A program made the translations under genes and the position numbers. From assembly GCA_024673055.1 (NCBI GenBank), contig GCA_024673055.1_4537.1: a stretch of 64,000 nucleotides of DNA; one strand, written 5' to 3'. Positions 37,586 through 52,842 of the stretch are shown here, piece by piece. Origin of the DNA: a phage. Position 1 is the first letter of the stretch. Each line of letters begins with the position of its first letter. The notes under the pieces were generated by a model. It worked only from the letters and a program-made list of their open reading frames with translations, was not told the DNA's origin and did not search any database.

Positions 37586-37781
37586 TTCTACCTCCTTCGA
37601 TGCTTTGTGCCGTACCATCCCAAGCCATTAGAATATTTGCCAATAGTTCACGAGGCTCTTTAAACCAAACTTCCATTTCATCAAGAATCTCGTCCGTGTC
37701 GTAAGTATAACCTGGAACACCAAGTTCGCATTTCTTAAGATAGCTTTCTAACCAGCGGTGATAATTCTTAACCCCATTCAT
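37578..37781 (-). CDS. hypothetical protein
   Basis: 67-aa track ORF. Confidence 0.4.
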   Translation of the reverse strand: MNGVKNYHRWLESYLKKCELGVPGYTYDTDEILDEMEVWFKEPRELLANILMAWDGTAQSIEGGRNE

Positions 37782-38154
37782 ACTGTGCTACCTTTTCTTT
37801 TACCCAATCTACACGATCTTTATCATAATGTTGAGTGCCAAGGAAAAGACCATTGTGGAAACTTTCCTCACCGAAAGGATAAATCGGATCTAAACCATCT
37901 TCTTCAAATAACATTTTTAGTCTCTGTGATGTAGATTTCTTAGTTTCTGAGTTGTAGTTTGTGGTTATAAGCCAATCTTCCAAACAACGACACAAACCTT
38001 GACGAGAATCCCAAGGAAAAACACAATCTCCAACAGGAGCTTTTTCCGCCCATTCTAACCAACCTTTAAAAAAGTTATACAATATGTAGTCTTCAGTGTA
38101 ATACATTAGCGCCTCCTTTACATATACAATAACACCCCGCAGAACGGGGTGCAA
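37768..38154 (-). CDS. paralog family A (GLC...YPF...WVK family)
   Basis: Shares GLCRCL, IYPFG, RVDWVKEKV motifs with six other ORFs. Confidence 0.5.
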   Translation of the reverse strand: MHPVLRGVIVYVKEALMYYTEDYILYNFFKGWLEWAEKAPVGDCVFPWDSRQGLCRCLEDWLITTNYNSETKKSTSQRLKMLFEEDGLDPIYPFGEESFHNGLFLGTQHYDKDRVDWVKEKVAQYEWG

Positions 38155-38773: not shown

Positions 38774-39046
38774 TCACCCCCAAGAAATATTTATATATCT
38801 TACAATGTTTGCACTGTCTAAAGCCATGTTTGCACCACACCCACGCTCGCGCCAGTAACTAACAATACCTTCACAGATACTCTCTTGTATCTTCTTATCA
38901 CTTGGCATTTCTAGTATAAGACTTGGGTTGTGGATGTTTATGTTATAATATCCTTCCTCTGCGGCTTGAGCTACCAATTTACTTACTTTTTCAAAGTACG
39001 GGGAATTAGTGGCATCTGCCATTGTTTTTAAGGTTTGTCTATCCAT
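38774..39046 (-). CDS. hypothetical protein
   Basis: 90-aa track ORF. Confidence 0.45.
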   Translation of the reverse strand: MDRQTLKTMADATNSPYFEKVSKLVAQAAEEGYYNINIHNPSLILEMPSDKKIQESICEGIVSYWRERGCGANMALDSANIVRYINISWG

Positions 39047-39444
39047 TATTCTGCCTCATCGTAGAAGAAATCCAACTCTTGTTCCAGTTGTTTAACTTGA
39101 TCCTTAACCCACTGTACACGTTTTTCATTAAACATGCAACGTTTTTCCTTACACTCTTGCTCAAAAGATTTTGCTGTGTTAAATGGGAAAGTTGTATCTA
39201 AACCAGCGTTTTCAAAACTGGCTAATTGCATACCATAAACAGAATATGCTAAAGAATGCTCTGCCCGAAATTCATCACTTATATACATACGCAGACCTCG
39301 GCATAAGCCAACATCAGCGTAACCACTTTCTCTTGGAAAGAGACGGAGGTGTTCTAACCAATTATTATAGAAATCTAAAAGAATCCTTTTACACTTCAAA
39401 TCGATTGTCATAAAAAGTTTCTCCTTCATCAAACAAGTTGGCAA
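39046..39444 (-). CDS. paralog family B (GLC...PF...WVK family)
   Basis: VGLCRGL, TFPFN, RVQWVKDQV motifs; start uncertain. Confidence 0.45.
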   Translation of the reverse strand: MPTCLMKEKLFMTIDLKCKRILLDFYNNWLEHLRLFPRESGYADVGLCRGLRMYISDEFRAEHSLAYSVYGMQLASFENAGLDTTFPFNTAKSFEQECKEKRCMFNEKRVQWVKDQVKQLEQELDFFYDEAE

Positions 39445-39819: not shown

Positions 39820-40497
39820 CTATTTAATGTTCAGTCTGGCACACAAACGAGAAACAGTTTTAGCATCCCATTTACCACCACGTGCTGTTGCTATTTTCTT
39901 ACTATTGAATTTTTCAGCAATAGTTTTGTAAGGTGTATTTAAATCTCTAAGGATCTCCAAACGTTCACGGAATGTCTCTGCAAAAGCGTCTGCTTTAACA
40001 GAGTTGTATTCCATTTTTCCTTTTCTACGTGCAGCGGCAGTTTTAGGATTAGCACTGCCTAATAAAACACCTTTGCTTTTTGCTACAGCAAGACCCTTTT
40101 TAATACGATCAGCAATACCTCTAACTTCTTGTTCAGCCAGAACAGACAGAAGCTGTATAACCATTTTATCTGCGTCTGGCATGATGGCTATCTTAACATC
40201 GATCATTTCTAGAAGAGTTGCTACGGAGGCGTTGTTACGACCCAAGCGGTCAACTTTAGCTACCAATAAAGTTGCTCCGGTAGCTTTACACATTTCAACC
40301 GCTTTAACCAGTTCCTTACGTTGCTTCCAATCGCCCTTACCCGAATAGTATTCAGAAAATTGACCAATAACTTCCGCATCAGGCACAGAGTCTAAGAAGT
40401 AACGGATATCGTTCTCCTGGCTCTGCATACCATACTGGGCTTCACCTTTCTTCTGTTTAGACAAACGGCTGTAAACAACAAACTTTTTCATGATCAA
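39820..40497 (-). CDS. serine recombinase (resolvase/invertase family)
   Basis: VYSRLSKQ (catalytic Ser region), LLVAKVDRLGRN, LLSVLAEQEVRGIADRIKKGLAVAKSKG align with Hin/Gin/resolvase core; C-terminal HTH-like tail. Confidence 0.7.
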   Translation of the reverse strand: MIMKKFVVYSRLSKQKKGEAQYGMQSQENDIRYFLDSVPDAEVIGQFSEYYSGKGDWKQRKELVKAVEMCKATGATLLVAKVDRLGRNNASVATLLEMIDVKIAIMPDADKMVIQLLSVLAEQEVRGIADRIKKGLAVAKSKGVLLGSANPKTAAARRKGKMEYNSVKADAFAETFRERLEILRDLNTPYKTIAEKFNSKKIATARGGKWDAKTVSRLCARLNIK

Positions 40498-40501
40498 CTC
40501 C

Positions 40502-40729
40502 TCAATCGTTATCAGGATTCCATTTTACAAACTTGAAGCAGTTATTGTCAAGGAATTTATTGGCATCTTTTTCCTGTTTCCAAACGGTGCATTGTTCTTT
40601 AAGGGCTATCTGCTCATTCTGCACGTCTGATACCGCATTAGCAAAGAGGATCAGAAATCCCAAAAAGACCAACATCAATAACAGATTAAAGAAAGTTTGA
40701 AAACTCATGCATCCTCCCATTTGATCCAC
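40502..40729 (-). CDS. small membrane protein (paralog of 46911..47147)
   Basis: TM helix; WKQEKDANKFLDNNC matches LKHERNAEKFLDLEC in the paralog. Confidence 0.4.
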   Translation of the reverse strand: MDQMGGCMSFQTFFNLLLMLVFLGFLILFANAVSDVQNEQIALKEQCTVWKQEKDANKFLDNNCFKFVKWNPDND

Positions 40730-40956
40730 AGAATCATTTCTTCAACGTAAACCTCTTTACCTTTGTTATTGATGAAAGTGTATTCTATGAACTCCGCTGT
40801 ATACTTTTTGTTGTATTGCTCCGCTGCTGGGATCGGACACTTTGTCATACGTGTCTCAACCCATTGACGATGAATCGTTGCCTTGTTTTTGGGGTCAAAC
40901 GGGTGTAAATAGTGCGGTTCTCCCTCTTGACTATGCCCCATTTTATTCTTCTTCGC
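40705..40956 (-). CDS. hypothetical protein
   Basis: Track ORF trimmed to ATG with GGAGGAGG SD (40956). Confidence 0.4.
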   Translation of the reverse strand, partial: AKKNKMGHSQEGEPHYLHPFDPKNKATIHRQWVETRMTKCPIPAAEQYNKKYTAEFIEYTFINNKGKEVYVEEMILWIKWEDA

Positions 40957-41287
40957 CATGCTGCACCTCCTCCAGACGGTCATACACCCAAGCAAGACGA
41001 TCGAAGTTTTTGTGTTGGGTGCCGGACTTCTTCTCAATCCAATAACAAGGAATCCAACCTGACAGATCCCACTCGCCATCGAACGGATAGTTCCATTCTA
41101 AACCTTCCGCTTCAAACTGCTCTACCATTTCATCAGAGAGGGAAAGATACAAATCTTGGTCTTCCCCGCAATACACTTCCACTGCATGACACAAACCGCA
41201 AGCTTTGATGTTTTCGGGTGGATTTTGACTCATAGCTTGATCCAACCACCACTCATAGAATTCCAACAACATGATACTTGATTTCAT
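40943..41287 (-). CDS. paralog family C (GLC...YPF family)
   Basis: LLEFYEWWL, CGLCHAV, NYPFDG motifs. Confidence 0.5.
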   Translation of the reverse strand: MKSSIMLLEFYEWWLDQAMSQNPPENIKACGLCHAVEVYCGEDQDLYLSLSDEMVEQFEAEGLEWNYPFDGEWDLSGWIPCYWIEKKSGTQHKNFDRLAWVYDRLEEVQHGEEE

Positions 41288-41655
41288 TTGTCTTCCCCTT
41301 TCTCCATAAGCGGCGAAGCCGCGATCATCGACTTATAGACAACTTCGGCTGTTCGGGTTAGCCCCGTCCAGTCCTTCGCTGCCTCCAACATTTCTGAGGT
41401 AGGCTCTTTCGGGACCAAGACATACCCTTCTGGGATACACATTCCACTCTCTTTCTTTTCAGCTTCTTCCGACATAACTTGCCACACTCCGTAGCTGCAA
41501 TTCTCGAACAAACAATAGAGTTCAGATCCTTCATCATCCACGACAATGAAACAGTTCTCATCTGCTACTTTGGCGTTGTAAATCCGACCTATGGTCAAAT
41601 AGTCTCGGACATTAATAAACTTAGAGGCAAGAAACTTCACACGAATGTTTTTCAT
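41284..41655 (-). CDS. hypothetical protein
   Basis: 123-aa track ORF. Confidence 0.5.
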   Translation of the reverse strand: MKNIRVKFLASKFINVRDYLTIGRIYNAKVADENCFIVVDDEGSELYCLFENCSYGVWQVMSEEAEKKESGMCIPEGYVLVPKEPTSEMLEAAKDWTGLTRTAEVVYKSMIAASPLMEKGEDK

Positions 41656-41891
41656 TTCTTAAACTCCGAAAAGCAACCCAAAGAGATGACCCCGCCATTA
41701 TAGACGATAGCAAACTGGCACCCTGTTTTTGTGTCTGTGATGATGTAATCTAAAGCCCCAGTCATGCCAGTTTGAACAAAGCGATCCTTGGTTACAACTT
41801 TTGAGTCCGAGAAGCCGTTAACTTTCGGCACAGTGTCTGCCATAACAGCAGGAGTCACCAGAAACAATGCAATCAGTAATGCCTTTTTCAT
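41652..41891 (-). CDS. small secreted protein (signal peptide)
   Basis: MKKALLIALFLVTPAVMA signal-like N-terminus. Confidence 0.5.
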   Translation of the reverse strand: MKKALLIALFLVTPAVMADTVPKVNGFSDSKVVTKDRFVQTGMTGALDYIITDTKTGCQFAIVYNGGVISLGCFSEFKK

Positions 41892-41902
41892 AAATCCTCC
41901 AG

Positions 41903-42217
41903 TTAGCCTTGAAATGAATTGCGACGACCAATACGGGCACAGCGATCACCTTCATAAGAGGTGAAATCCAAACTCACTCGGAAGCCAGGGTGGGTATCAG
42001 AGATCCCCACATTCTTCACCCACATCTCGAAACTGCCGATATGTAAGGTCATAATGTTTACATACCATTCCAGCGTCACTTCTGTGCCGTCTACACCTGT
42101 GATGTAAAACTCACGAGCGAAATGGGTGTCGTGCTTCTCTTTCTGACGCTCATACTTAGCGATTGCACCTTTCTCAACAGCCGCTTTCAGGATCACTTCT
42201 AATTCTTCTATTTGCAT
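41903..42217 (-). CDS. hypothetical protein
   Basis: 104-aa track ORF. Confidence 0.5.
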   Translation of the reverse strand: MQIEELEVILKAAVEKGAIAKYERQKEKHDTHFAREFYITGVDGTEVTLEWYVNIMTLHIGSFEMWVKNVGISDTHPGFRVSLDFTSYEGDRCARIGRRNSFQG

Positions 42218-42272
42218 GTTCTCTCTCCTCTTGTTGTTGATGCAATCACTATAATATGTCTGACACTCTCTG

Positions 42273-42488
42273 TCAAATGTTTTCTGCTTCCAGTACTACT
42301 CTCTGGATCTGCACATCGTCAATGTTTGCAAGACAAGTCCCTAAGATAAGCCCTGCTCGGAAAGGGGCTTGGAATTTGGAGGAAGCCCCCACTCGAATAG
42401 AATACTCCACACCGCACATAACATAATCTACACGGTACATATTCAAGCCCATGAACATGAGTTCTTCTTCCGACTCTTCGATTTGCAT
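42273..42488 (-). CDS. hypothetical protein
   Basis: 71-aa track ORF (preferred over overlapping 42319..42510). Confidence 0.4.
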   Translation of the reverse strand: MQIEESEEELMFMGLNMYRVDYVMCGVEYSIRVGASSKFQAPFRAGLILGTCLANIDDVQIQRVVLEAENI

Positions 42489-42500
42489 TTTTATCTCCTC

Positions 42501-43055
42501 TTAGTTCCAACTAACGATGATGTGTTTGATAACCCCAAAAACGCTATATTCCGCTGTTGTCAACGTTACATCTAAACCTTTTGCACGCAACATTGTGGCT
42601 ACTACATTCACCCCTTCTTTCTGTTTATCCATCTCTTCGTAAGAAGAAGGGCTGTTACACAAACCAAAACTCGAAGGTTCAAAATATTTTTGGAATTTCC
42701 CCTGTTCTGCATAATCTTCAATCTCCGGCAGAATACAGTCTACCATTTCAGTAAAATGGGAATTTGCTTGCAGTGCTTTACTACGTAGTTTATCACGTAA
42801 ACTTCCCACAAACCCTTCCTGATCTTCTGTTTGCTCTTCTTCACAGAAAGGATGAAGTTCAGCCCAGTCCCAAACGTCTCCCTCTAAAGCAAACGTTGTG
42901 TTGTAGTTGAAGAAGGTGCAACGTGGAAGTTCCCCGTTGAAAGAGTCCTTCAGCAAAATGTATTTCTTACCATTTGCGTGGAAGAGTTCCCCTTTGATAA
43001 CCTTGCCTTTCTCGATATCGCTGTTGGTGGAACGGGTGCAGATAAACTGTTTCAT
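42501..43055 (-). CDS. hypothetical protein
   Basis: 184-aa track ORF. Confidence 0.55.
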   Translation of the reverse strand: MKQFICTRSTNSDIEKGKVIKGELFHANGKKYILLKDSFNGELPRCTFFNYNTTFALEGDVWDWAELHPFCEEEQTEDQEGFVGSLRDKLRSKALQANSHFTEMVDCILPEIEDYAEQGKFQKYFEPSSFGLCNSPSSYEEMDKQKEGVNVVATMLRAKGLDVTLTTAEYSVFGVIKHIIVSWN

Positions 43056-43109
43056 GATTTTCTCCTCTCTGTTTCGATGAGATGATTATGACAAAGACAG
43101 ATCCCTCTG

Positions 43110-43436
43110 TCAACCAATTATTTCTTCTGCTACACGTTCTTTTACCCAGTTCACGCGATCCACATTCAAATGACAACGGCTTCTTTCTGCTTCTAAGGTG
43201 TACTTTCCAAAATTACTGTTGAAAGGCAGCACCATAACCAAACCTTTGTGGTAGAACTGCTCATGCATTTCATCCAGTACAGGTTCGTATCGTTCGCTTT
43301 CTCCCATATCGTAAAAATCATAGAGGTTCGTGCACAAACCTGTGCAACGGGTGAACGGTTCGCCTTCAGGAGCACCAGCTTCCAACCATGCCAAATACGT
43401 GCGGTAAAATGTTAATAGTTCTTCGCTCATTTCCAC
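43110..43436 (-). CDS. paralog family D
   Basis: LTFYRTYLAWLEAGAP, TGLCTNL, VLPFN, RVNWVKERV. Confidence 0.5.
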   Translation of the reverse strand: MEMSEELLTFYRTYLAWLEAGAPEGEPFTRCTGLCTNLYDFYDMGESERYEPVLDEMHEQFYHKGLVMVLPFNSNFGKYTLEAERSRCHLNVDRVNWVKERVAEEIIG

Positions 43437-43639
43437 TCTCCTTCATGATAGTAAACCTCAAAAGAATAGTAAGTGAACATGCTCATTGTAACACCTGCCA
43501 TTTCTGGATCAAAGGGAGTGTTGTTATACATGTCAACCACTGCCTGACCCGCTGCTTTGGCATGTGCTGCCGAATCACAGGCACAAACATCTTTCTCCCA
43601 CGGAAACTTGCCATCGTACTTAAGACGGACAATCCACAT
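43427..43639 (-). CDS. hypothetical protein
   Basis: 70-aa track ORF. Confidence 0.45.
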   Translation of the reverse strand: MWIVRLKYDGKFPWEKDVCACDSAAHAKAAGQAVVDMYNNTPFDPEMAGVTMSMFTYYSFEVYYHEGEWK

Positions 43640-43641
43640 GC

Positions 43642-43869
43642 TTATTCCTCCATCTCAAACCATTCAGGGAACACTTTACGGAAGACACGGGTTGTTTCCA
43701 AAAGGAATTCCAATTCTTTTTCCAGATCTGCGTTCCAATCGTGCACTTTAACATTGATTGCCAATGCACTTGCACGGCGACTTAATTCTTGACAGATTGG
43801 ATCACGCAGAACTATTGAGTCGTAAAACTGACAAACGGCCTCAAGTTCATACCAGTTATAATCCGACAT
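43642..43869 (-). CDS. hypothetical protein
   Basis: 75-aa track ORF. Confidence 0.45.
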   Translation of the reverse strand: MSDYNWYELEAVCQFYDSIVLRDPICQELSRRASALAINVKVHDWNADLEKELEFLLETTRVFRKVFPEWFEMEE

Positions 43870-44195
43870 TATTCATCCTCCTCTGCAATACGATCTCTTA
43901 CCCAATTAATCCTGTCCACGTTCAGGTGACATACCTCTGCATCTGATTCTAAGACATATGCATCGTAGTTCTCATTGAAAGGGAGTTCTTGACTCAACCC
44001 TTTGTAGTAAAACTGTGAGTGCATTTCGTCTGACAAGGTTGTTATAAGGAGATTGTAGCCATCTGCGTGCACATAATCGAACAAGTTGGCACACAAACCG
44101 CAATCTCGCCGAAAAGGTTTACCATCAGGAGCACCAACATCAATCCATGCTAGATAAATTTTATAAAACTCCATCAACCCTGCGCTTGTTTTCAT
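43869..44195 (-). CDS. paralog family E
   Basis: MEFYKIYLAWIDVGAP, CGLCANL, LPFN, RINWVRDRI. Confidence 0.5.
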   Translation of the reverse strand: MKTSAGLMEFYKIYLAWIDVGAPDGKPFRRDCGLCANLFDYVHADGYNLLITTLSDEMHSQFYYKGLSQELPFNENYDAYVLESDAEVCHLNVDRINWVRDRIAEEDE

Positions 44196-44433
44196 TTAGC
44201 CACCTCGTTAGTTTTTCTTGCTCTTTGTTTGCGCGTTCTAAGCTTCTAAACTTTAAACAAAGGGAACGAGAATCCCTACCCATGCACAAGCTTTCATCTA
44301 AGCTGTGCTCCCCAACCAACCAAAGAGAATATGTTTGAACATCTAACCCATAGTTTCTGTCTTTCCATAATCTCACCCCAAGAACATCAAAAGGCGCTTC
44401 CGCGACTAAAGAAAGAAACCGATCTTTATTCAT
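44161..44433 (-). CDS. hypothetical protein
   Basis: 90-aa track ORF. Confidence 0.4.
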   Translation of the reverse strand: MNKDRFLSLVAEAPFDVLGVRLWKDRNYGLDVQTYSLWLVGEHSLDESLCMGRDSRSLCLKFRSLERANKEQEKLTRWLNENKRRVDGVL

Positions 44434-44495
44434 ATTACACCACCTTTCTCACGTTGATAATGTATGTATACCATACATAAAATAAATGTCAAGGC

Positions 44496-44696
44496 TTATC
44501 GACACAGATAGTTGTAACGATCTGCTTTATCCTCTGCTTCAGCAAAGTCAGCAATCAAGGAAGTTTTGAGTTCTTCCAACTCTTTCACCCAAGAGTCGTA
44601 ATCGTTCTGTGTTTCTCCAATAGTTTGGAGAAAACAATCGTCGTAGCCAATAGACATGGCTAACTCGATAATACGTTCCAGTTTTTCTTCCATCAC
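44496..44696 (-). CDS. hypothetical protein
   Basis: 66-aa track ORF. Confidence 0.4.
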   Translation of the reverse strand: MMEEKLERIIELAMSIGYDDCFLQTIGETQNDYDSWVKELEELKTSLIADFAEAEDKADRYNYLCR

Positions 44697-45055
44697 TTCT
44701 CTCCTTCTACAGACTTCTGTTTAACATAGAAGTAAGCACCACGAGCAAGATACAAATCATGTTCAATATCGCTCACAGGAAAACCATCTGGATTTTTAAA
44801 ACCATCTTCTACAGCCAAAATGAGAGATCGTAAACTGATAGCTAACAACTCCATTTGATCTTGTAGTTTTCTATTTTCTGCGTAAAGGTTTTTGCATTTT
44901 TGTTCTGCATTTTTCCATTGTTCTAATGCATGATCATAGCGGTGCATAAGAATAGCTTTTTCTTGTTCACGCTTAAAAGTTTCTTCACAAATGAAATCCG
45001 TGCCTAAACCAGTTTCTTCATCTTTGACAAATACTTCAACAAAATCTTTAGACAT
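44693..45055 (-). CDS. hypothetical protein
   Basis: Track ORF trimmed to ATG 45055 with AGGAGA SD. Confidence 0.45.
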   Translation of the reverse strand: MSKDFVEVFVKDEETGLGTDFICEETFKREQEKAILMHRYDHALEQWKNAEQKCKNLYAENRKLQDQMELLAISLRSLILAVEDGFKNPDGFPVSDIEHDLYLARGAYFYVKQKSVEGEK

Positions 45056-45056
45056 A

Positions 45057-45320
45057 TTATCTCCTATTTGCTTTTGGATACTCCCAACCCTCTGGGAGAT
45101 CTTCTTTACACATCCACTCAAAAGGCCAGCGACAATAACTGTGCCACTTCCCATCGAGATACAAGCAATCTTCATCTACTGGTCCACAAGGGTTGATAAC
45201 TACAACACACCCTTTCGCTCGCCAATATTGAACTATTTCAGGGTAAAAACAAGAAACGTCGGTCCACTCCCAAATACGCTCATCATTCAAACGATATGCT
45301 GCTGGCAATGTTTCTTCCAT
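45057..45320 (-). CDS. hypothetical protein
   Basis: 87-aa track ORF. Confidence 0.45.
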   Translation of the reverse strand: MEETLPAAYRLNDERIWEWTDVSCFYPEIVQYWRAKGCVVVINPCGPVDEDCLYLDGKWHSYCRWPFEWMCKEDLPEGWEYPKANRR

Positions 45321-45324
45321 ATTA

Positions 45325-45771
45325 TTAAACCTCTGTCAAAGAGAACCGCCAATCCTTACTACTACCTACACCAAGGAAGATATAGTCTCCGGTACTAACG
45401 GAATATCTCCAAGCGGGAATCCAATCAGGAATCTCTGGCTTATGGCTGTAGCCATAACGCTCGCCACTCGAATCTGTTGCAATATAATTAACAAATTCAG
45501 GAACCTCTAAAATTTCACCTTGATACTCTACACGCTTGAAGCCATCTTCCACTTCTTTCTCACCTTCTACCAGACAAGCAAGAAGTTTGATGTGAGGGCA
45601 AGTGAAATCTTGTCCTGGATAACGTGAACGGATATCAGTTAACAATGCGATCACAGCATCCGATAACTCTTTATAATCCTCATATCTTACAAATGTGCCT
45701 TCTGTCGGATCATCAGGACATAAACGCCAAACATCGTTGCAGTTTACAGCATAATGTCGCATTTTAGTCAT
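45325..45771 (-). CDS. hypothetical protein
   Basis: 148-aa track ORF. Confidence 0.5.
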   Translation of the reverse strand: MTKMRHYAVNCNDVWRLCPDDPTEGTFVRYEDYKELSDAVIALLTDIRSRYPGQDFTCPHIKLLACLVEGEKEVEDGFKRVEYQGEILEVPEFVNYIATDSSGERYGYSHKPEIPDWIPAWRYSVSTGDYIFLGVGSSKDWRFSLTEV

Positions 45772-45781
45772 AAATACCCCC

Positions 45782-46180
45782 TTATCGTTGCGTACAATCA
45801 GCTTCTAGAGTAAGAACATTCGTTATTGTTTTATCATTTTTTAGAAATGCAAACCAAGCCAAAGTGTCTCGATACTCTGTGCGCATCATTACTACTTCAG
45901 TAGTGCCAATAAACTGTTGTGAACCGTACATAGCACTACCATCTTTACTTTTTTCTCCTGTGTATTGCAGAATGCCACTCATCAAAGCACCACCTGAATT
46001 TTTAAGGATAAAGGAGTTATCTTTATTAATGACAACAGAAGCCATTTTCTTAGGACCAGAAATCACTTCACCTTTCAGATTTTTAACAACCACATCTGAC
46101 ACACACTCATAAACTTGAGACGCATTTGCTGTTCCAAGTGATGCAATGAGTAACAATAAACCTACAATGATCTTTTTCAT
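45782..46180 (-). CDS. secreted protein (signal peptide)
   Basis: MKKIIVGLLLLIASLGTANA signal peptide. Confidence 0.5.
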   Translation of the reverse strand: MKKIIVGLLLLIASLGTANASQVYECVSDVVVKNLKGEVISGPKKMASVVINKDNSFILKNSGGALMSGILQYTGEKSKDGSAMYGSQQFIGTTEVVMMRTEYRDTLAWFAFLKNDKTITNVLTLEADCTQR

Positions 46181-46275
46181 ATAAACTCTCCTCTTTATTT
46201 ACCCGACGCGCCCCTGTTGGGCGGAAAGGGTTGTACGCAAAATTTTTAGCTCCAATCGTCGGGTGTCCCGACTCC

Positions 46276-46482
46276 TTACGCTTTTAATGTTTTAACAGAA
46301 TGACAAGCTTTGCAAACCATAACCGGAACAAGTTCATCTCCATTATCCGCATAAATCACTGTTTTCTTCATTCTGCCACCACATGAACAATACTCCGTAT
46401 GATCCACTGGAATATTAAATATTCCGTAATCACTTTCATACTGTTTCTTACATATGGACACTGCTTTTGTAAAACAAGACAT
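46276..46482 (-). CDS. small zinc-ribbon protein
   Basis: CKKQ...CSCGG...CKAC. Confidence 0.45.
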   Translation of the reverse strand: MSCFTKAVSICKKQYESDYGIFNIPVDHTEYCSCGGRMKKTVIYADNGDELVPVMVCKACHSVKTLKA

Positions 46483-46484
46483 AC

Positions 46485-46706
46485 CTACTCCGAAAGAACA
46501 TTCACTTCATCAGAGAAAAATACGTAATCACAACCTTCCCAAACATCTTCTTCAAACCACTCCCATCCCTCAACTTTGGACATTTCTTCTATCGTAACAA
46601 AGAATGTTGTCATATCATCGCTAACAAGATGTGCTTCAACAACAAAAGGAATCTGAACATTCTCAAAACCAACATAACCCAATACATCGCAAACTCTAAT
46701 TTTCAT
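46485..46706 (-). CDS. DYVFF-family small protein (paralog of 49962..50192)
   Basis: Shares W-rich acidic C-terminus ...EGCDYVFFSDE with ...EGEDYVFFPHE. Confidence 0.45.
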   Translation of the reverse strand: MKIRVCDVLGYVGFENVQIPFVVEAHLVSDDMTTFFVTIEEMSKVEGWEWFEEDVWEGCDYVFFSDEVNVLSE

Positions 46707-46707
46707 A

Positions 46708-46908
46708 TTATGCTCCTTTGTAGATTATGTTGGTGCGTTCACACTCTGCCACCAGCAAGCGATTAGCGATGTTGTCCATAGGAACATCAATCTCTACGCT
46801 CCAGGCATTGATATACACTTCTTCAATCTTTGCTCCAAGCGTTTGTGCGATCAGGGCAACAGCCCCAGCATATTCAAGTTTAATCTCTATTACCATTTTG
46901 CACCTCAA
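46708..46908 (-). CDS. hypothetical protein
   Basis: 66-aa track ORF. Confidence 0.4.
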   Translation of the reverse strand: MRCKMVIEIKLEYAGAVALIAQTLGAKIEEVYINAWSVEIDVPMDNIANRLLVAECERTNIIYKGA

Positions 46909-46910
46909 GG

Positions 46911-47147
46911 TTATTTATCTTGCTTGTATCTTACAAGGCGATCACACTCTAGGTCAAGAAATTTCTCCGCATTTCGTTCATGTTTGAGCACAATACATTG
47001 TTCTTTCCAGTCTGTAGCTCTTTGCTGCGCTGCTCCTGGGTCAAAATCCCAAAGCCATGCCGCGAAAAGAACAACCATAACAATTATCAAGAAACTAAAC
47101 ACTATTGGCATTGCACATCCTCCTGTGTAGCATGATCTTTTACCCAT
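46911..47147 (-). CDS. small membrane protein (paralog of 40502..40729)
   Basis: TM helix plus conserved KEQC...AEKFLDLEC segment. Confidence 0.4.
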   Translation of the reverse strand: MGKRSCYTGGCAMPIVFSFLIIVMVVLFAAWLWDFDPGAAQQRATDWKEQCIVLKHERNAEKFLDLECDRLVRYKQDK

Positions 47148-47416
47148 TTTATACGGGCAGCATTCAAATGTAATAGCCCGTTTCTTTGTGCAAAATCATA
47201 TTTAAACCAGTCTCCGTCATCAAACGGGTATTCTTCAGACAACCCTGCTTCTCGAAATTGCATTTGCATTTCATAATTTAGATCATCGTAACCACCAGTC
47301 CAAAGGTAGAGGCAACTACATAATCCTTTATCGTGCCAGAAAGGATTATTATCTGGAGCACCAGCTAATAGCCAGTTATGATATGCCTGATAAAATTCTT
47401 TAAGTTCTTCTGACAT
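47102..47416 (-). CDS. paralog family F
   Basis: LKEFYQAYHNWLLAGAP, KGLCSCL, EYPFD, RIKWVKDH. Confidence 0.5.
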   Translation of the reverse strand: MSEELKEFYQAYHNWLLAGAPDNNPFWHDKGLCSCLYLWTGGYDDLNYEMQMQFREAGLSEEYPFDDGDWFKYDFAQRNGLLHLNAARIKWVKDHATQEDVQCQ

Positions 47417-47614
47417 TTAACCTCCTGTATACAGTGTTGAAAGATACACAGCAAAAGCATTCTCGGCTGTTTTCACCTCCTCTTCAAGATCTTCACGCTC
47501 TGCTGGCGTTAATGCATTCCGCACAGCAGCGTCTGCTTCTCGGATTTTTCTTACTAAACGTGAAACATCTTTCAATTGTTGAAAAGTAGCCATAATCTTT
47601 CTCCTTTTAGTCAA
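47417..47614 (-). CDS. hypothetical protein
   Basis: 65-aa track ORF. Confidence 0.4.
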   Translation of the reverse strand: MTKRRKIMATFQQLKDVSRLVRKIREADAAVRNALTPAEREDLEEEVKTAENAFAVYLSTLYTGG

Positions 47615-47858
47615 ACCAGTTGTATTCAGAAGGGTAACGAGCGTAGTTTGGCTTGTACCCCAGCCTTTTCATCTTGACAGACATACGAGTGAAGCCAAAG
47701 GTTGTTTTGCCCTTAGACATAAACTTCTTCCCACTCTTCATTGGCTTCTTAGGGTCTTTGATCGTCTGGTGTAACGCTCGCGCAAGCCATAAAGTGTATG
47801 CGCTCGGCACTTGATTAACTTTCATCTTGTTACCTTTCATCATTTCACCTCGGACCAA
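47607..47858 (-). CDS. hypothetical basic protein
   Basis: 83-aa track ORF; lysine-rich. Confidence 0.4.
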   Translation of the reverse strand: MVRGEMMKGNKMKVNQVPSAYTLWLARALHQTIKDPKKPMKSGKKFMSKGKTTFGFTRMSVKMKRLGYKPNYARYPSEYNWFD

Positions 47859-48139
47859 TCAATAGTGATCCACTCGTATGCCCCGTTCAGATCCATTTCT
47901 TTATAAACAATAAGCCCACGCTCACGAAGAATTGCTACTGCTTCATCCATCCATTTCACCTGATTGTAGATTTCCCCTGGGTGAGTAGGAGAATTATCCA
48001 AACCAAAATCGGATGGCGTGAAATTCCTTGAAGAGTTTCCCGCTCGTGCTTCAGCAAAACAAGTCTCGATCACTTCTTCAACAGGGAAGTTGAAGGAAGC
48101 TTCTTTTGCAATACGGCGTAACTGTTCGGTCAGATTCAT
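47840..48139 (-). CDS. hypothetical protein
   Basis: 99-aa track ORF. Confidence 0.45.
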   Translation of the reverse strand: MNLTEQLRRIAKEASFNFPVEEVIETCFAEARAGNSSRNFTPSDFGLDNSPTHPGEIYNQVKWMDEAVAILRERGLIVYKEMDLNGAYEWITIDWSEVK

Positions 48140-48166
48140 CTTATTCTCCTTTCGTTGTGCGAAACA

Positions 48167-48604
48167 TTATAACAGATCTAATGCTTTCAACTCTTCTTTC
48201 AATGATTCAGGCAGGTCACATTCAATGTCAATCAGAGATAACAAGTGACCAACAATGCCTTCCAGATGTTGATACTCACTATAACTTATAAATTCAGAAT
48301 TGTAAACAGAAACATCCTTAGTTTCTTTCACAACTTCCCCCGCAGACACGCACATAAAAAAGTTACGCTCTCCGCGAGCTAACAATATCTCCCAACTTCT
48401 GAACGGATACTGTCCAGCTTCAATAATATCCCCGCTGTCCAATAAAGTCAATGAGCAAACAGACCCTGATTCACTAACATCTTCGACGCGGAAACAAGAC
48501 CCTTCAATCAAAGCTGCCATTTTGAAATTTTCATCCGAGATCACAGAGAAAGCTTCACAGGCAGCTTTACTTTTGAAACAGTAAACAGCATTAACTTTAA
48601 ACAT
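48167..48604 (-). CDS. hypothetical protein
   Basis: 145-aa track ORF. Confidence 0.5.
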   Translation of the reverse strand: MFKVNAVYCFKSKAACEAFSVISDENFKMAALIEGSCFRVEDVSESGSVCSLTLLDSGDIIEAGQYPFRSWEILLARGERNFFMCVSAGEVVKETKDVSVYNSEFISYSEYQHLEGIVGHLLSLIDIECDLPESLKEELKALDLL

Positions 48605-48616
48605 AACATTCCCCTT

Positions 48617-49153
48617 TTAAACAAAAGATACTCCGATGGTAGCAACAACCAAACGTTTATAAACTTCAACCTCTTCTGTAGGATTAGCCATTTTATGCTC
48701 TGCTGCTTCTTTCAAAGCTTCTTCATAACTTTCAAATCCAGAAATACAGGTGTCATCAGTCATTACAACATACCACTCTTCTTTTGTTGTATCAACAGGT
48801 TCTTCTTGGGGTTTTCCACGACCACCACGAATACCACCGTCAACAAAATAATCTATATGAGCAGAATTGATTATGTAACGATCCCCATCACTAGCAGTGA
48901 TAATACCGTCTCTCCCTATCACAACAATTGACAAGATATTACCATTTGCATCAGTGCTCAACACCTCGAAAAAATTCTCTCCGATGATAGCCGCAATACT
49001 GTTATCAAAGGTAGAATATAGTCGCATATAATCCTCATCCTGGAAACGGTAGACATGACCTTCTTTAAACATTGTATGCTCCTTCTTGTTCAAGAGTGAA
49101 AGGAATGATTTCACCATAGCTGTATCGCATAGCATCAACTTCTGCTTCTGCAC
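48617..49153 (-). CDS. hypothetical protein
   Basis: 178-aa track ORF. Confidence 0.5.
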   Translation of the reverse strand: MQKQKLMLCDTAMVKSFLSLLNKKEHTMFKEGHVYRFQDEDYMRLYSTFDNSIAAIIGENFFEVLSTDANGNILSIVVIGRDGIITASDGDRYIINSAHIDYFVDGGIRGGRGKPQEEPVDTTKEEWYVVMTDDTCISGFESYEEALKEAAEHKMANPTEEVEVYKRLVVATIGVSFV

Positions 49154-49259
49154 GTTGTGCTAGTTCTAATGTTGCACAGATCTTGTAAGGGACAGTGCTG
49201 CATTGGCTCCAGCCTGGGGTATTCTTTGTTACTAAATATACAGTAGTTCCTTTATTCAT
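49065..49259 (-). CDS. hypothetical protein
   Basis: 64-aa track ORF; overlaps upstream gene by 89 nt, uncertain. Confidence 0.3.
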   Translation of the reverse strand: MNKGTTVYLVTKNTPGWSQCSTVPYKICATLELAQRAEAEVDAMRYSYGEIIPFTLEQEGAYNV

Positions 49260-49713
49260 AACTTTCTCCTCCTAGTTCATCATACCATTTCAAAGCGTCT
49301 TTTGGAAGCATACCAAAATCTTCTTTCAGTTCTTTTTCAATCTCTTCTTGCATTTCCATCAGCGTTTTCAGTTGACGGACTTTTTTGTGCATAGCCACAT
49401 TCCTTTCATTAAGGTTTGTCACTACATTATTTGCACGACTCGGTGGGAATGACAAAGGTTTCACGGGAAGATAATCTTCAATATTATCTAATGCATTACG
49501 AAAATTATGATCCAAGAAACGCACATCTACACGATTGTAATCGGCAGCTACAACAGTGAACACTTTAAACGGCACATTGGATAAAGTATGTTGCACACAG
49601 ACAGTACCCATATTGCCTTCAATTTTACTATTAACTTCCAGCAAACCTGTATGAGCACTAACATAATCGTGAACACATTGCACATAAGCTGCCAGTATAG
49701 TGAATTGTCTCAT
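49252..49713 (-). CDS. hypothetical protein
   Basis: 153-aa track ORF. Confidence 0.5.
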   Translation of the reverse strand: MRQFTILAAYVQCVHDYVSAHTGLLEVNSKIEGNMGTVCVQHTLSNVPFKVFTVVAADYNRVDVRFLDHNFRNALDNIEDYLPVKPLSFPPSRANNVVTNLNERNVAMHKKVRQLKTLMEMQEEIEKELKEDFGMLPKDALKWYDELGGESYE

Positions 49714-49958
49714 TTTCTACCTCCCCATAATGCTAACATTTTATTGAAAATGGAAACGCGTCGTGCGCGAGATGCCATATCATAATTCATTCTTTCCGTC
49801 TCTGCAAGAAATTGATCTACTGTAATCAACGCTTCCGTCTTCTCTTTCAGAGTTTGCACATTCATCCATTCACATTCAGAGTACCAGTTATCGAAATACA
49901 AACTATCAAGAAGATCCATTGCTGCTTCATTCTGTTGTGGTGTGATCATTGCACACAA
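49710..49958 (-). CDS. hypothetical protein
   Basis: 82-aa track ORF. Confidence 0.45.
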   Translation of the reverse strand: MCAMITPQQNEAAMDLLDSLYFDNWYSECEWMNVQTLKEKTEALITVDQFLAETERMNYDMASRARRVSIFNKMLALWGGRK

Positions 49959-49961
49959 CCT

Positions 49962-50192
49962 TTAATAGACAATTTCATATTCGTGAGGAAAGAAAACATA
50001 ATCTTCCCCTTCTCGTGCATCTATCTCGTCCCAAAACCATTCCTGCACTTCCATCATCTTCGAGAATCGCACATGAGCAAGCCCACTGTATTCCACTGTA
50101 GCTTCCAACACAAGTGGAAATTTTGCATGTGCCAATCCTTTATAACCACCATCATTCTCAATACGAATTTTCATGCGTTTCATGTTATGCAT
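49962..50192 (-). CDS. DYVFF-family small protein
   Basis: Paralog of 46485..46706. Confidence 0.45.
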   Translation of the reverse strand: MHNMKRMKIRIENDGGYKGLAHAKFPLVLEATVEYSGLAHVRFSKMMEVQEWFWDEIDAREGEDYVFFPHEYEIVY

Positions 50193-50394
50193 CCTTCAGA
50201 CCCTTAATGAAGTAACGACTAACCGGATTCCCTCGGAAGTATTCGTTAATGAAATCGATAACACACGTTTCACTGCCTGTCACAACGGACGGCTTACAGT
50301 TTTGGAATTCTACAGCTACACGGCTGGCTTTAGCCAGTGCTTGCACACGTGTAGGATCAGTCAAGAACATTGTGACAGTTTTCAAATTCTTCAT
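50185..50394 (-). CDS. hypothetical protein
   Basis: 69-aa track ORF. Confidence 0.4.
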   Translation of the reverse strand: MKNLKTVTMFLTDPTRVQALAKASRVAVEFQNCKPSVVTGSETCVIDFINEYFRGNPVSRYFIKGLKDA

Positions 50395-50443: not shown

Positions 50444-50818
50444 TTATTCAATGCAAGCATTATTTGCATCTTCAATTCTGTCTTTCACCCACTGAAGACG
50501 TAACGTGTTGGTATGACACGCCAAGTTTATACACTCTGAAAGGTAATCCATGCAATCTGCATTGAACGGAAGATTGTAGTCCAACCCTGCACATGTAAAT
50601 TGTTTCCTCATTTCATATTTCAAACGGTCCAACAAACTATCCCGCCATCTTCTATCTTCTTCTCTAGTTGTCTCACCAACAAAATCATCTACATAATCTA
50701 CCAGACAACCGCATAAGCCACTCGTTGTGCGATTCATTGCAGGATAGTTGGCAATCCATGCTTTATAGAAGCGAAGTAATGTTGCACTACTCAACGGAAC
50801 ATTTTTACTCTCTTGCAT
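50444..50818 (-). CDS. paralog family G (first gene of the minus-strand block)
   Basis: LLRFYKAWI, SGLCGCL, NLPFN, RLQWVKDRI. Confidence 0.5.
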   Translation of the reverse strand: MQESKNVPLSSATLLRFYKAWIANYPAMNRTTSGLCGCLVDYVDDFVGETTREEDRRWRDSLLDRLKYEMRKQFTCAGLDYNLPFNADCMDYLSECINLACHTNTLRLQWVKDRIEDANNACIE

Positions 50819-52247: not shown

Positions 52248-52277
52248 GGGCAAAAAGAAAGGGCGCTTGGTGCGCCC
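52248..52277 (-). terminator. intrinsic terminator ending the small-gene array
   Basis: GGGCGC-ACCAA-GCGCCC hairpin (read on - strand) followed by TTTCTTTTT; same hairpin recurs at 52826 and 58301. Confidence 0.55.
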
Positions 52278-52293: not shown

Positions 52294-52713
52294 TTATAAC
52301 GCTTCATAGATTGAGTAGATCCGGTTTGCAAGGTCATTACGAAAGCGGAATTTTTCATCACGTTTGATCATCAGATCCTTAAAACCGCATTCTTTCAGTG
52401 CTTCATTAACTTTATGGCGGCAAACGTTCATATTATCCTGCGCGTCACCAATAAACTTATTACTGTGATGCATTGCTTTGATCTCTTCCTCCAATACCAG
52501 GGCAACTACACGGATCGGATCAAGCTGATATGCGGTAACATCCATGCGGCATTGTAAACGGCTTTTAACATCGTTTACCGGATACACTGCAACCTCTTCC
52601 CCGTCAACGTTCACGATAACCAATTTACCATCGATTTCGAAGCCTTTGGCGGCGCTACCGTGACAAAAAGCGTTATCGAAGGAGTAAGCTGGATTATTTG
52701 ATTTAATGTTCAT
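52294..52713 (-). CDS. hypothetical protein
   Basis: 139-aa track ORF. Confidence 0.5.
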   Translation of the reverse strand: MNIKSNNPAYSFDNAFCHGSAAKGFEIDGKLVIVNVDGEEVAVYPVNDVKSRLQCRMDVTAYQLDPIRVVALVLEEEIKAMHHSNKFIGDAQDNMNVCRHKVNEALKECGFKDLMIKRDEKFRFRNDLANRIYSIYEAL

Positions 52714-52825
52714 GGTGTTGTCCTTTGTTTCGTTTCGTTGTTTGCTGCCAGTGAGTTAAATATAATATAACGCCGATCCCCTGTCAATAGGGGATAGCGC
52801 ATTATTTACATTTCTTTACGTTAAA

Positions 52826-52842
52826 GGGCGCTTGGTGCGCCC
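52826..52842 (-). terminator. stem-loop (copy of GGGCGCTTGGTGCGCCC)
   Basis: Identical 17-bp hairpin downstream of 52853..53221. Confidence 0.4.

Follow-up and report, generated by a model that had tools for sequence, protein, structure and literature searches.

Comeau and Krisch are said to have described hyperplastic (plastic) regions in T4-type phages, in which gene modules are shuffled. The block of small accessory genes analysed here, which lies in a 64,000-nucleotide stretch of phage DNA (the window), belongs to Stephanstirmvirinae, but it resembles those regions: it consists of numerous small ORFs of unknown function, most of them presumably early, with paralogous small genes among them, and close relatives have gained or lost single genes or cassettes in it against a background of collinear core genomes. 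Self-blastn and a repeat search found no repeated promoter or stem-loop cassettes at the junctions of the block; in contrast to the T4-type regions, the junctions here are microhomologies of ribosome-binding sites and ATGA, together with homologous sequence of a seven-member gene family (Fam7). Multigene families also expand and contract in large DNA viruses, as in the "genomic accordions" of poxviruses and the MGFs of ASFV. Shared with these is a diversified multi-copy family near the genome end whose copy number is altered by unequal tandem recombination, whereas the Fam7 copies in the block, at 25-51% identity, are of old date, are passed on stably as distinct orthologue groups and show no sign of recent amplification. 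A third comparison concerns the small membrane or periplasmic envelope proteins that phages use for superinfection exclusion, such as T4 Imm and Sp, T5 Llp, and Cor. The proteins that we call TM are likewise very small, with a hydrophobic N-terminal segment, a C-terminal part predicted to be periplasmic and an early or accessory location, but they have no detected sequence similarity to anything annotated and lack a lipobox.

To judge from the identity of the region to ESCO13, Mt1B1_P17 and further Phapecoctavirus genomes (95-97%), the source phage is a Phapecoctavirus (phAPEC8/ESCO13-like) coliphage, which infects E. coli. The block would be an early, host-interaction region, early expression being read from genome position only, because the homologous block of phi92 (gp001-036) starts directly after the left terminal repeat. 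It contains at least four to five old paralogous families dispersed between unrelated small genes, and start and stop codons overlap as a rule all through it. The features are collected in the table; the coordinates listed first were those of maximal ORFs, and the likely starts, set from ribosome-binding sites and database annotation, are 40708 (MSFQ...) for TM_a, 47111 (MPIVF...) for TM_b and 50183 for DY_b.

Table. Features of the accessory block and their positions in the window
Feature	Position	Strand	Remarks
Terminal block of small accessory genes	37.7-50.8 kb	-	Phapecoctavirus
Paralogous families of the block			Fam7 (seven), TM (two), DY (two), P99 (two), one tandem N-terminal-domain pair
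Fam7 a	37768..38154	-	
Fam7 b	39046..39444	-	groups with N-terminal domain of phi92 gp010, bootstrap 84
TM_a, 68 aa, paralogue of TM_b	40502..40708 (maximal ORF to 40729)	-	phrog_15662, E 7.4e-11; z = 14
1.9-kb replacement cassette: TM_a, 84-aa gene, Fam7 c, four more small genes	40562..42474		
84-aa gene cassette between Fam7 c and TM_a	40705..40959	-	phrog_2008
Fam7 c	40943..41287	-	upstream of TM_a, 84-aa gene between; ESCO13 orthologue abuts TM_a
184-aa protein, C-terminal ~100 aa P99-like	42501..43055	-	phrog_37387 and phrog_15686
Fam7 d	43110..43436	-	
Fam7 e	43869..44195	-	modelled sequence; 51% identical to Fam7 d
DY_a, 73 aa, acidic (pI 4.05), small, beta-rich, EGCDYVFF motif	46485..46706	-	
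TM_b, 66 aa, predicted small exported or membrane-anchored protein	46911..47111 (maximal ORF to 47147)	-	phrog_15662, E 1.5e-42
Fam7 f	47102..47416	-	directly upstream of TM_b, 10-nt overlap
P99, 99 aa	47840..48139	-	paralogue of C-terminal half of 42501-43055
DY_b, paralogue of DY_a	49962..50183 (maximal ORF to 50192; likely start ATG at 50183)	-	
Fam7 g	50444..50818	-	two genes upstream of DY_b; chimera

Homology within both small-gene pairs, as proposed in the preliminary description, was confirmed. TM_a and TM_b are 32-34% identical (34% over 70 aa, E 7.5e-10 in blastp within the block), and their Smith-Waterman score of 86 compares with 23 +/- 4.5 in shuffles (z = 14; none of 5000 shuffles scored as high), the C-terminal soluble part alone still giving z = 12.5. 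DY_a and DY_b are 37% identical over 71 aa (blastp E 2e-11; z = 17, a score reached in 0 of 5000 shuffles), and both carry EG-x-DYVFF, the DYVFF motif on which the pairing had been proposed. Each pair falls into a single PHROG, with significant matches over the full profile: phrog_15662 for both TM copies, and phrog_15322 for both DY copies (E 2.5e-44 and 2.1e-41). Such short and compositionally biased proteins might in principle resemble one another by chance, through their hydrophobic or acidic residues, or might be ORFs that are not genes. This reading is refuted, and we regard it as next to impossible, by z-scores of 12.5-17 against composition-preserving shuffles, by PHROG matches with E down to 1e-44, and by the ribosome-binding sites of the paired genes and their annotated orthologues, which are conserved in dozens of phages. 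Two further sets of paralogues had been overlooked: P99 matches the C-terminal half of 42501-43055 (blastp E 2e-8), and the tandem genes 48167-48604 and 48617-49075 have N-terminal PHROG matches in common.

The seven-member family also stood up, with pairwise E-values of 1e-5 to 1e-40 among all seven members; each matches phrog_2510 (E between 7e-22 and 5e-31 in the four members that were scanned), and a search of the window found no copies beyond these seven. The conserved motifs are GLC, PF and R-x-x-WV, and 96 sequences all share L34, C35, P72, F73, R95, W98 and V99. Fam7 is confidently predicted to be a five-helix bundle of ~105 aa (AF2 model of Fam7 e, pLDDT 95.6, five helices), for which no relatives were found in Pfam, in PDB or by fold. 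The family is widespread in phages of Proteobacteria (about 2000 clusters at 50% identity), commonly in several copies per genome, and proteins with two or three tandem-fused Fam7 domains occur elsewhere, including Burkholderia phage BcepSaruman. By HMM score, the window proteins are clear members of phrog_2510 (Fam7), phrog_15662 (TM), phrog_15322 (DY) and phrog_15686/37387 (P99); PHROGs label all of these "unknown function", Pfam, NCBIfam and PDB gave no match for these families, and PHROG membership thus provides a name to which no function or structure is attached.

The age of the copies is the point on which the earlier interpretation, segmental duplication within the early region, has to be revised. 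A recent in-place duplication in this lineage, of a Fam7-TM unit and of a DY-containing unit, would agree with the Fam7-then-TM order at two loci (f-TM_b in the window, and c-TM_a directly adjacent in ESCO13) and with the gene string of the block, F.D / FT.D / F.T. Paralogy and the recurring order hold, but the collinear DNA similarity and the sister relationship of the copies that such an event implies were not found. In the self-comparison of the block, both pairs are significantly similar at the protein level, at only 32-37% identity, and essentially not at all at the nucleotide level: self-blastn of 36-52 kb yielded only one match, a 44-nt patch between two Fam7 members, the TM pair has one 54-nt patch of 72% identity, and a repeat search returned only patches of 40-54 nt with 61-77% identity, within conserved codons. 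Between the paralogues stand genes that are unrelated to one another. Closer relatives are found in other genera, as TM_b is nearer to phi92 gp007 (44% identity) than to TM_a (32%), and DY_b is 53% identical to its positional orthologue in Justusliebigvirus against 37% to DY_a; Klebsiella phage phi1_175008 carries both DY subtypes. In a tree whose deep branches are poorly supported, each Fam7 of the window falls together, at bootstrap 100, with a positional orthologue in ESCO13 or phiWec188; Fam7 c and f do not form a sister pair, and their relationships fail to mirror those of the TM genes. Even the adjacency may be fortuitous, since Fam7 accounts for 7 of 40 genes and a permutation test placed both TM genes within two genes of a Fam7 by chance in ~10% of cases (P ~0.1). 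We therefore consider recent segmental duplication very improbable. The TM and DY duplications are, by all these comparisons, true but very old paralogy. Because each copy belongs to a separate orthologue group kept across phages, some of them in other genera, several of the paralogue splits are evidently older than the divergence of the Stephanstirmvirinae genera.

Present-day change in gene content and copy number evidently goes by gene or by cassette, not by long segmental copies, and three cases illustrate this. Fam7 g is a chimeric gene, made up of two tandem paralogues which in ESCO13 and phAPEC8 are still separate: its 5' region and first ~13 codons match the upstream copy of ESCO13 exactly, the remainder matches the downstream copy, and the crossover is located in TTCCGTTGAG(T/C)AGT, a pattern demonstrating unequal homologous recombination between tandem Fam7 paralogues. 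The 84-aa gene, whose nucleotide sequence is about 74% identical to that of a Justusliebigvirus gene, is absent from ESCO13, where the junction reads GGAGGAGGCATGA; it is clearly seen from this comparison to be a single-gene cassette inserted or lost at a ribosome-binding-site/ATGA junction. The third case is the segment 40562-42474, which cannot be aligned to phAPEC8, where 836 bp of other genes stand in its place; 6 phage records contain all of it and ESCO13 a part, and its GC content is 44.4% against 37.6% in the left flank. The GC difference and the patchy distribution argue for exchange between phages rather than local copying, and kilobase cassettes such as this TM_a/Fam7 c cassette are evidently swapped between related phages.

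The same cassette suggests another view, in which no duplication took place in this lineage, the second Fam7/TM set came in on a foreign cassette whose donor was a more distant phage, and the "paralogues" are xenologues. Besides its GC content, this would be in line with the absence of the cassette from phAPEC8 and most relatives, with the rarity of TM_a, found in 10 phage records whereas TM_b is in more than 60 (62 at >90% identity), and with the Justusliebigvirus relative of the 84-aa gene. However, all known TM and DY genes come from Stephanstirmvirinae-like phages, so that the ultimate origin is still duplication inside the phage group, and the tandem Fam7 pairs (ESCO13 15216/14858, 50% identity; d/e, 51%) together with the chimeric g show that local duplication and deletion operate. 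We think this view unlikely, though worth keeping in mind. A combination of old paralogous families, turnover by gene and cassette, an old Fam7-then-TM order, and conjectured functions in envelope and host binding is, taken as a whole, the explanation that we consider likely.

What the order itself means is a separate matter. According to the preliminary description, both TM genes lie immediately downstream of a family member; this is true of TM_b, which overlaps Fam7 f, and not of TM_a, from which Fam7 c is separated by 40705-40959. The start of TM_a overlaps the stop of that 84-aa gene (ATGA). Fam7 followed by TM is nevertheless the order in the window (f-TM_b), at the TM_a locus of ESCO13 (4-nt ATGA overlap) and in phi92 (gp006-gp007), and P99, Fam7 and TM are consecutive in phi92 (gp005 being the P99 orthologue directly before gp006), L008, L009 and AMO3598. 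The order probably reflects an old P99-Fam7-TM arrangement as in phi92, at least at the conserved 47-kb locus, although an ancestral module of this kind rests on two or three lineages and is contradicted by TM paralogues with no Fam7 neighbour, namely phi92 gp022 and the copy in Klebsiella phage phi1_175008. One could go further and propose that Fam7 and TM, possibly joined by P99, make up a functional module, with the adjacency kept by selection and the two versions serving as specificity variants; examples would be a cytoplasmic partner with an exported peptide, or a regulator, adaptor and effector. Such a module would fit the coding overlap and the placement of the TM ribosome-binding site in the 3' end of Fam7 (for TM_b, AGGAGGA 6 nt 5' of the ATG at 47111), seen at three loci in two genera, the consecutive genes of the phi92-like phages, and the retention of at least one TM version by the sampled phages (b only in phAPEC8, a only in phiWec188, both in the window and ESCO13). 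The overlap is not specific to Fam7 and TM, however, because start-stop overlaps are normal in the block; moreover, a TM neighbour is lacking at five of the seven Fam7 genes, Fam7 c and TM_a can be parted by the insertion of an unrelated gene, phiWec188 lost TM_b yet retains Fam7 f, and the gene trees and similarity patterns of Fam7 and TM disagree. A functional module thus seems to us distinctly unlikely. More doubtful again is the notion of a previously unrecognised three-gene early Stephanstirmvirinae module (P99-Fam7-TM) comprising a five-helix cytoplasmic protein and an exported disulfide-hairpin peptide, acting for instance in superinfection exclusion or counter-defence, with specificity variants of which each phage would need at least one.

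As for the individual proteins, TM_b consists of a hydrophobic N-terminal segment followed by ~40 aa with the invariant motif KEQC-x16-C, and the two Cys are invariant in five TM sequences from two genera. The N-flank of the hydrophobic segment is neutral or positive and the C-flank negative, and the TM paralogue gp022 of phi92 is annotated with a signal peptide. The TM proteins would accordingly be placed N-in/C-out on export, their ~40 aa in the periplasm forming a hairpin closed by a disulfide, both topology and disulfide being predicted. A search of the five sequences for a lipobox found no Cys at or just after the hydrophobic segment, the conserved Cys lying 15-35 residues beyond, and identity as an Llp/Cor-type lipoprotein was therefore rejected. 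We tentatively speculate that the hairpin may have its site of action in the cell envelope, where it might, for instance, exclude superinfecting phages or block a host factor of the envelope. The DY gene is labelled lambda Ea8.5 in Shigella phage SF1-1; its profile found nothing in PDB at E <=10, and its predicted model is SH3-like and beta-rich. Fam7 and DY have pI values of 4.0-5.3 and might, at low confidence, be acidic cytoplasmic binders of host proteins, diversified in an arms race.

Because the pairs are old and did not arise by recent segmental duplication, they are nothing unusual for the genome of a large lytic phage, and the main value of this work is one of tidying: what looked like "duplicated modules" are paralogous families of old date and not active segmental duplication. 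Two routes of change in this accessory block were documented at the base-pair level: unequal recombination between tandem paralogues, and insertion of a single gene at a ribosome-binding-site junction. The more useful by-product is Fam7, which, as it often occurs in several copies per genome, can reasonably be included in screens for early phage proteins that act on the host.

All-against-all blastp of the minus-strand genes, repeated with phmmer, recovered the seven-member family proposed in the preliminary description (Fam7, members a to g), and all seven proteins belong to phrog_2510. The small membrane-protein genes at 40502-40729 (TM_a) and 46911-47147 (TM_b) also proved to be paralogous (blastp, 34% identity, E 7.5e-10), as did the genes sharing the DYVFF motif at 46485-46706 (DY_a) and 49962-50192 (DY_b; 37% identity, E 2e-11). 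Against composition-preserving shuffles the DY pair scored z = 17 and the TM pair z = 14, the latter still reaching z = 12.5 when only its non-hydrophobic C-terminal part was compared. Each set falls into one PHROG catalogued as of unknown function: TM into phrog_15662, DY into phrog_15322 and Fam7 into phrog_2510. A fourth pair, previously missed, links the 99-aa protein P99 (47840-48139), at 28% identity (E 2e-8), with the C-terminal half of 42501-43055, and the tandem neighbours 48167-48604 and 48617-49075 have N-terminal PHROG matches in common (phrog_3710/622/5347/5804). These neighbours also match the T4 goF-like phrog_13003 faintly (E 0.0045), and in phi92-like phages a homologue stands first in the same order of genes (L008, 1350-1802). 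No further copies of these families were found in the rest of the 64-kb window. The coordinates first given for the pairs delimit maximal ORFs. Judged by ribosome-binding sites and public annotation, TM_a starts at 40708, TM_b at 47111 and DY_b probably at 50183, and the 'GGC' common to the long-ORF N-termini is the Shine-Dalgarno GGAGGA translated in frame.

Fam7 members and cassette-associated features of the block (window positions)
Feature	Coordinates	Strand	Content or location	Evidence or remark
Fam7 a	37768-38154	minus		blastp/phmmer
Fam7 b	39046-39444	minus		blastp/phmmer
Fam7 c	40943-41287	minus		blastp/phmmer
Fam7 d	43110-43436	minus		blastp/phmmer
Fam7 e	43869-44195	minus		blastp/phmmer
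Fam7 f	47102-47416	minus		blastp/phmmer
Fam7 g	50444-50818	minus		blastp/phmmer
Swap cassette	40562-42474 (1.9 kb)		seven small genes: TM_a, 84-aa gene, Fam7 c and four more	replaced relative to phAPEC8
Serine recombinase/resolvase-family gene	39820-40497		within the accessory block, directly downstream of TM_a	weak NCBIfam matches only (YneB-like, E 5e-8)

Phapecoctavirus comprises E. coli myophages of about 150 kb within the Stephanstirmvirinae, and 40000-50500 matches genomes of this genus (ESCO13, Mt1B1_P17 and phAPEC8 relatives) at 95-97% identity over 75-89% of its length. Surprisingly for coliphage-like DNA of 93-97% identity, several of the near-identical genomes are recorded under other hosts, as phages of Acinetobacter, Pseudomonas, Campylobacter or Klebsiella (e.g. 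ABPW7, PsgM04F, A145). Every gene from about 33 to 52.7 kb lies on the minus strand, and nearly all genes of the block are labelled 'hypothetical protein' in public records. Because the homologous genes of phi92, from a sister genus, start directly after the left terminal repeat (gp001-gp036), we infer that the 37.7-50.8-kb minus-strand block is an early accessory block. A tRNA scan of the 64-kb window found none. Few convincing ORFs occur at about 50.85-52.25 kb, and beyond them an exact 20-nt GC-rich, terminator-like hairpin repeat (AAAGGGCGCTTGGTGCGCCC, 52258-52277 and 52823-52842) flanks the gene 52294-52713. The 148-aa protein encoded at 45325-45771 is homologous in its N-terminal half to the 74-aa phi92 gp008-type protein (phrog_23083), which suggests domain fusion or fission between genera.

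The paralogous pairs had been read as a segmental duplication within the early region, and this reading failed at the DNA level: in a self-comparison, the 16-kb block had no self-similarity except for one 44-nt match of Fam7 d to Fam7 e, against none in codon-shuffled controls, and a looser repeat search returned only 40-54-nt patches of 61-77% identity, all on the most conserved codons. The gene order in the direction of transcription is F.D........FT.D.......F..F.....F.T..F..F (F = Fam7, T = TM, D = DY), and phmmer and direct comparison found no similarity among the genes between the paralogues. A larger collinear unit, Fam7-[TM]-X-DY, was considered and rejected, the X genes (50185-50394, 46708-46908 and the 84-aa gene at 40705-40959) being mutually dissimilar. 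The statement that each TM gene lies immediately downstream of a Fam7 member is correct for TM_b, which shares 10 nt with the end of Fam7 f and has its ribosome-binding site inside that gene, and incorrect for TM_a, where the 84-aa gene intervenes after Fam7 c. Since Fam7 accounts for 7 of the 40 genes, both TM genes fall at most two genes downstream of a Fam7 member in about 10% of trials with shuffled gene order. Duplication of a two-gene unit was likewise not borne out, as Fam7 c and f are not sisters in the neighbour-joining tree and the Fam7 and TM histories are incongruent. In that tree, the window's Fam7 proteins each join the positional orthologue from ESCO13 or phiWec188 (bootstrap 100), and d and e form the only close sister pair (bootstrap 99).

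Comparison with relatives points the same way. P99, Fam7 and TM are consecutive (gp005, gp006 and gp007) in phi92 and three other phi92-like genomes, and these genes share the wider order of the window from 50.8 to 46.5 kb (Fam7, x, DY ... P99 ... Fam7, TM), so that, judged by gene order, the 47-kb locus and DY_b are conserved, syntenic copies. The P99 orthologue gp005, directly before the Fam7-TM pair, is annotated 'predicted transcription regulator' in phi92. TM_b is 44% identical to phi92 gp007 versus 32% to TM_a, and DY_b shares 53% identity with the Justusliebigvirus DY protein versus 37% with DY_a; phi92 gp006, compared with Fam7 c-g, scores lowest against f. Klebsiella phage phi1_175008 carries both DY subtypes in the order DY(a-type)-Fam7-DY(b-type) with 4-nt overlaps (L010, 781-1960), the DY domain forming the N-terminal part of longer proteins of 122 and 152 aa. 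A second, divergent TM paralogue of phi92-like phages (phi92 gp022, L006 7387-7611; L011 9051-9275) has no adjacent Fam7, and neither has the TM gene of phi1_175008. Searches for homologous proteins of Fam7 and DY returned close relatives only, and a related-locus search with the TM alignment returned only three loci. By these identities, the synteny and the Fam7 tree, the paralogy is old, predating the genus splits, with Fam7 and TM histories that are not congruent.

The block also carries marks of later change. In place of the single gene g, ESCO13 and phAPEC8 have a tandem pair of Fam7 genes (compare L001, 14858-15560), giving seven copies in the window versus eight in relatives. Fam7 g is a chimera, in which the upstream region and the first ~13 codons correspond to the upstream copy and the remainder to the downstream copy, with the crossover near codon 10 within the shared 15-nt TTCCGTTGAG(T/C)AGT; such a pattern is what unequal homologous recombination between tandem paralogues leaves behind. 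Elsewhere, e.g. in Burkholderia phage BcepSaruman, two or three Fam7 domains are fused in one protein. The 84-aa gene (phrog_2008) sits as a precise 250-bp insert in the SD/ATGA junction that joins Fam7 c to TM_a, with GGAGGAGGTGCAGCATG and GGGAGGATGCATGA on its two sides; it is absent in ESCO13, where the Fam7 c orthologue meets TM_a via an ATGA overlap (GGAGGAGGCATGA), and has a relative of about 74% nucleotide identity in Justusliebigvirus genomes. At the position of the swap cassette, phAPEC8 has 836 bp of different genes. The cassette has a GC content of 44.4% versus 37.6% in the left flank. Only six phage records (phiWec179/181/186/188/190 and PsgM04F) have all of it, and ESCO13 has a part. 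TM_a occurs in 10 phage records versus 62 with TM_b at >90% identity, and phiWec188 has TM_a and lacks TM_b, although Fam7 f, DY_a and the 66-aa gene all have orthologues there. The left cassette boundary lies at a strong match to a sigma-70-like promoter (40551-40522), a short way upstream of the serine recombinase gene. A link of this recombinase to an invertible or site-specific cassette was considered and set aside, as only weak imperfect inverted repeats and no convincing invertible segment were found nearby.

In the TM proteins, the N-terminal hydrophobic segment has a negative C-flank and an N-flank that is neutral or positive, and is followed by ~40 residues with the invariant motif KE[QK]C-x16-C; phi92 gp022 carries a SignalP annotation, and a lipobox is absent from the TM proteins. 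They are predicted to be N-in/C-out, with a periplasm-facing, disulfide-closed helical hairpin. DY is a small acidic beta protein (pI 4.0-4.7), whose model (pLDDT 82) has only a generic SH3-like resemblance; the label Ea8.5 in one public record found no supporting match for DY in a PDB sequence search. For all families, Pfam, NCBIfam and PDB sequence searches gave nothing above threshold (matches to Brr6_like_C_C, YaeQ and YneA lay far under their cut-offs), and a BFVD search matched uncharacterised phage proteins only.

The block most likely consists of families of small early or accessory proteins that are old and have diversified. The copies would have arisen long ago through local, mostly tandem, duplication, and the block would later have been rearranged by unequal recombination, by insertion of single-gene cassettes at ribosome-binding-site junctions and by exchange of cassettes among co-infecting relatives. 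An ancestral P99-Fam7-TM arrangement may survive in the recurring Fam7-TM order. We tentatively predict a host-interaction role for TM at the envelope, in exclusion or the blocking of an envelope factor, and, with similarly low confidence, that Fam7 and DY are cytoplasmic binders of variable host targets, which, if so, could be the reason for their multiplicity and divergence. The literature searched contained no description of these families, nor of the paralogy within the block. For large lytic phages, early regions with paralogous families of small genes and with cassette-wise plasticity are well known; the finding is ordinary, with some neat mechanistic details and one large uncharacterised family, Fam7, that deserves notice.
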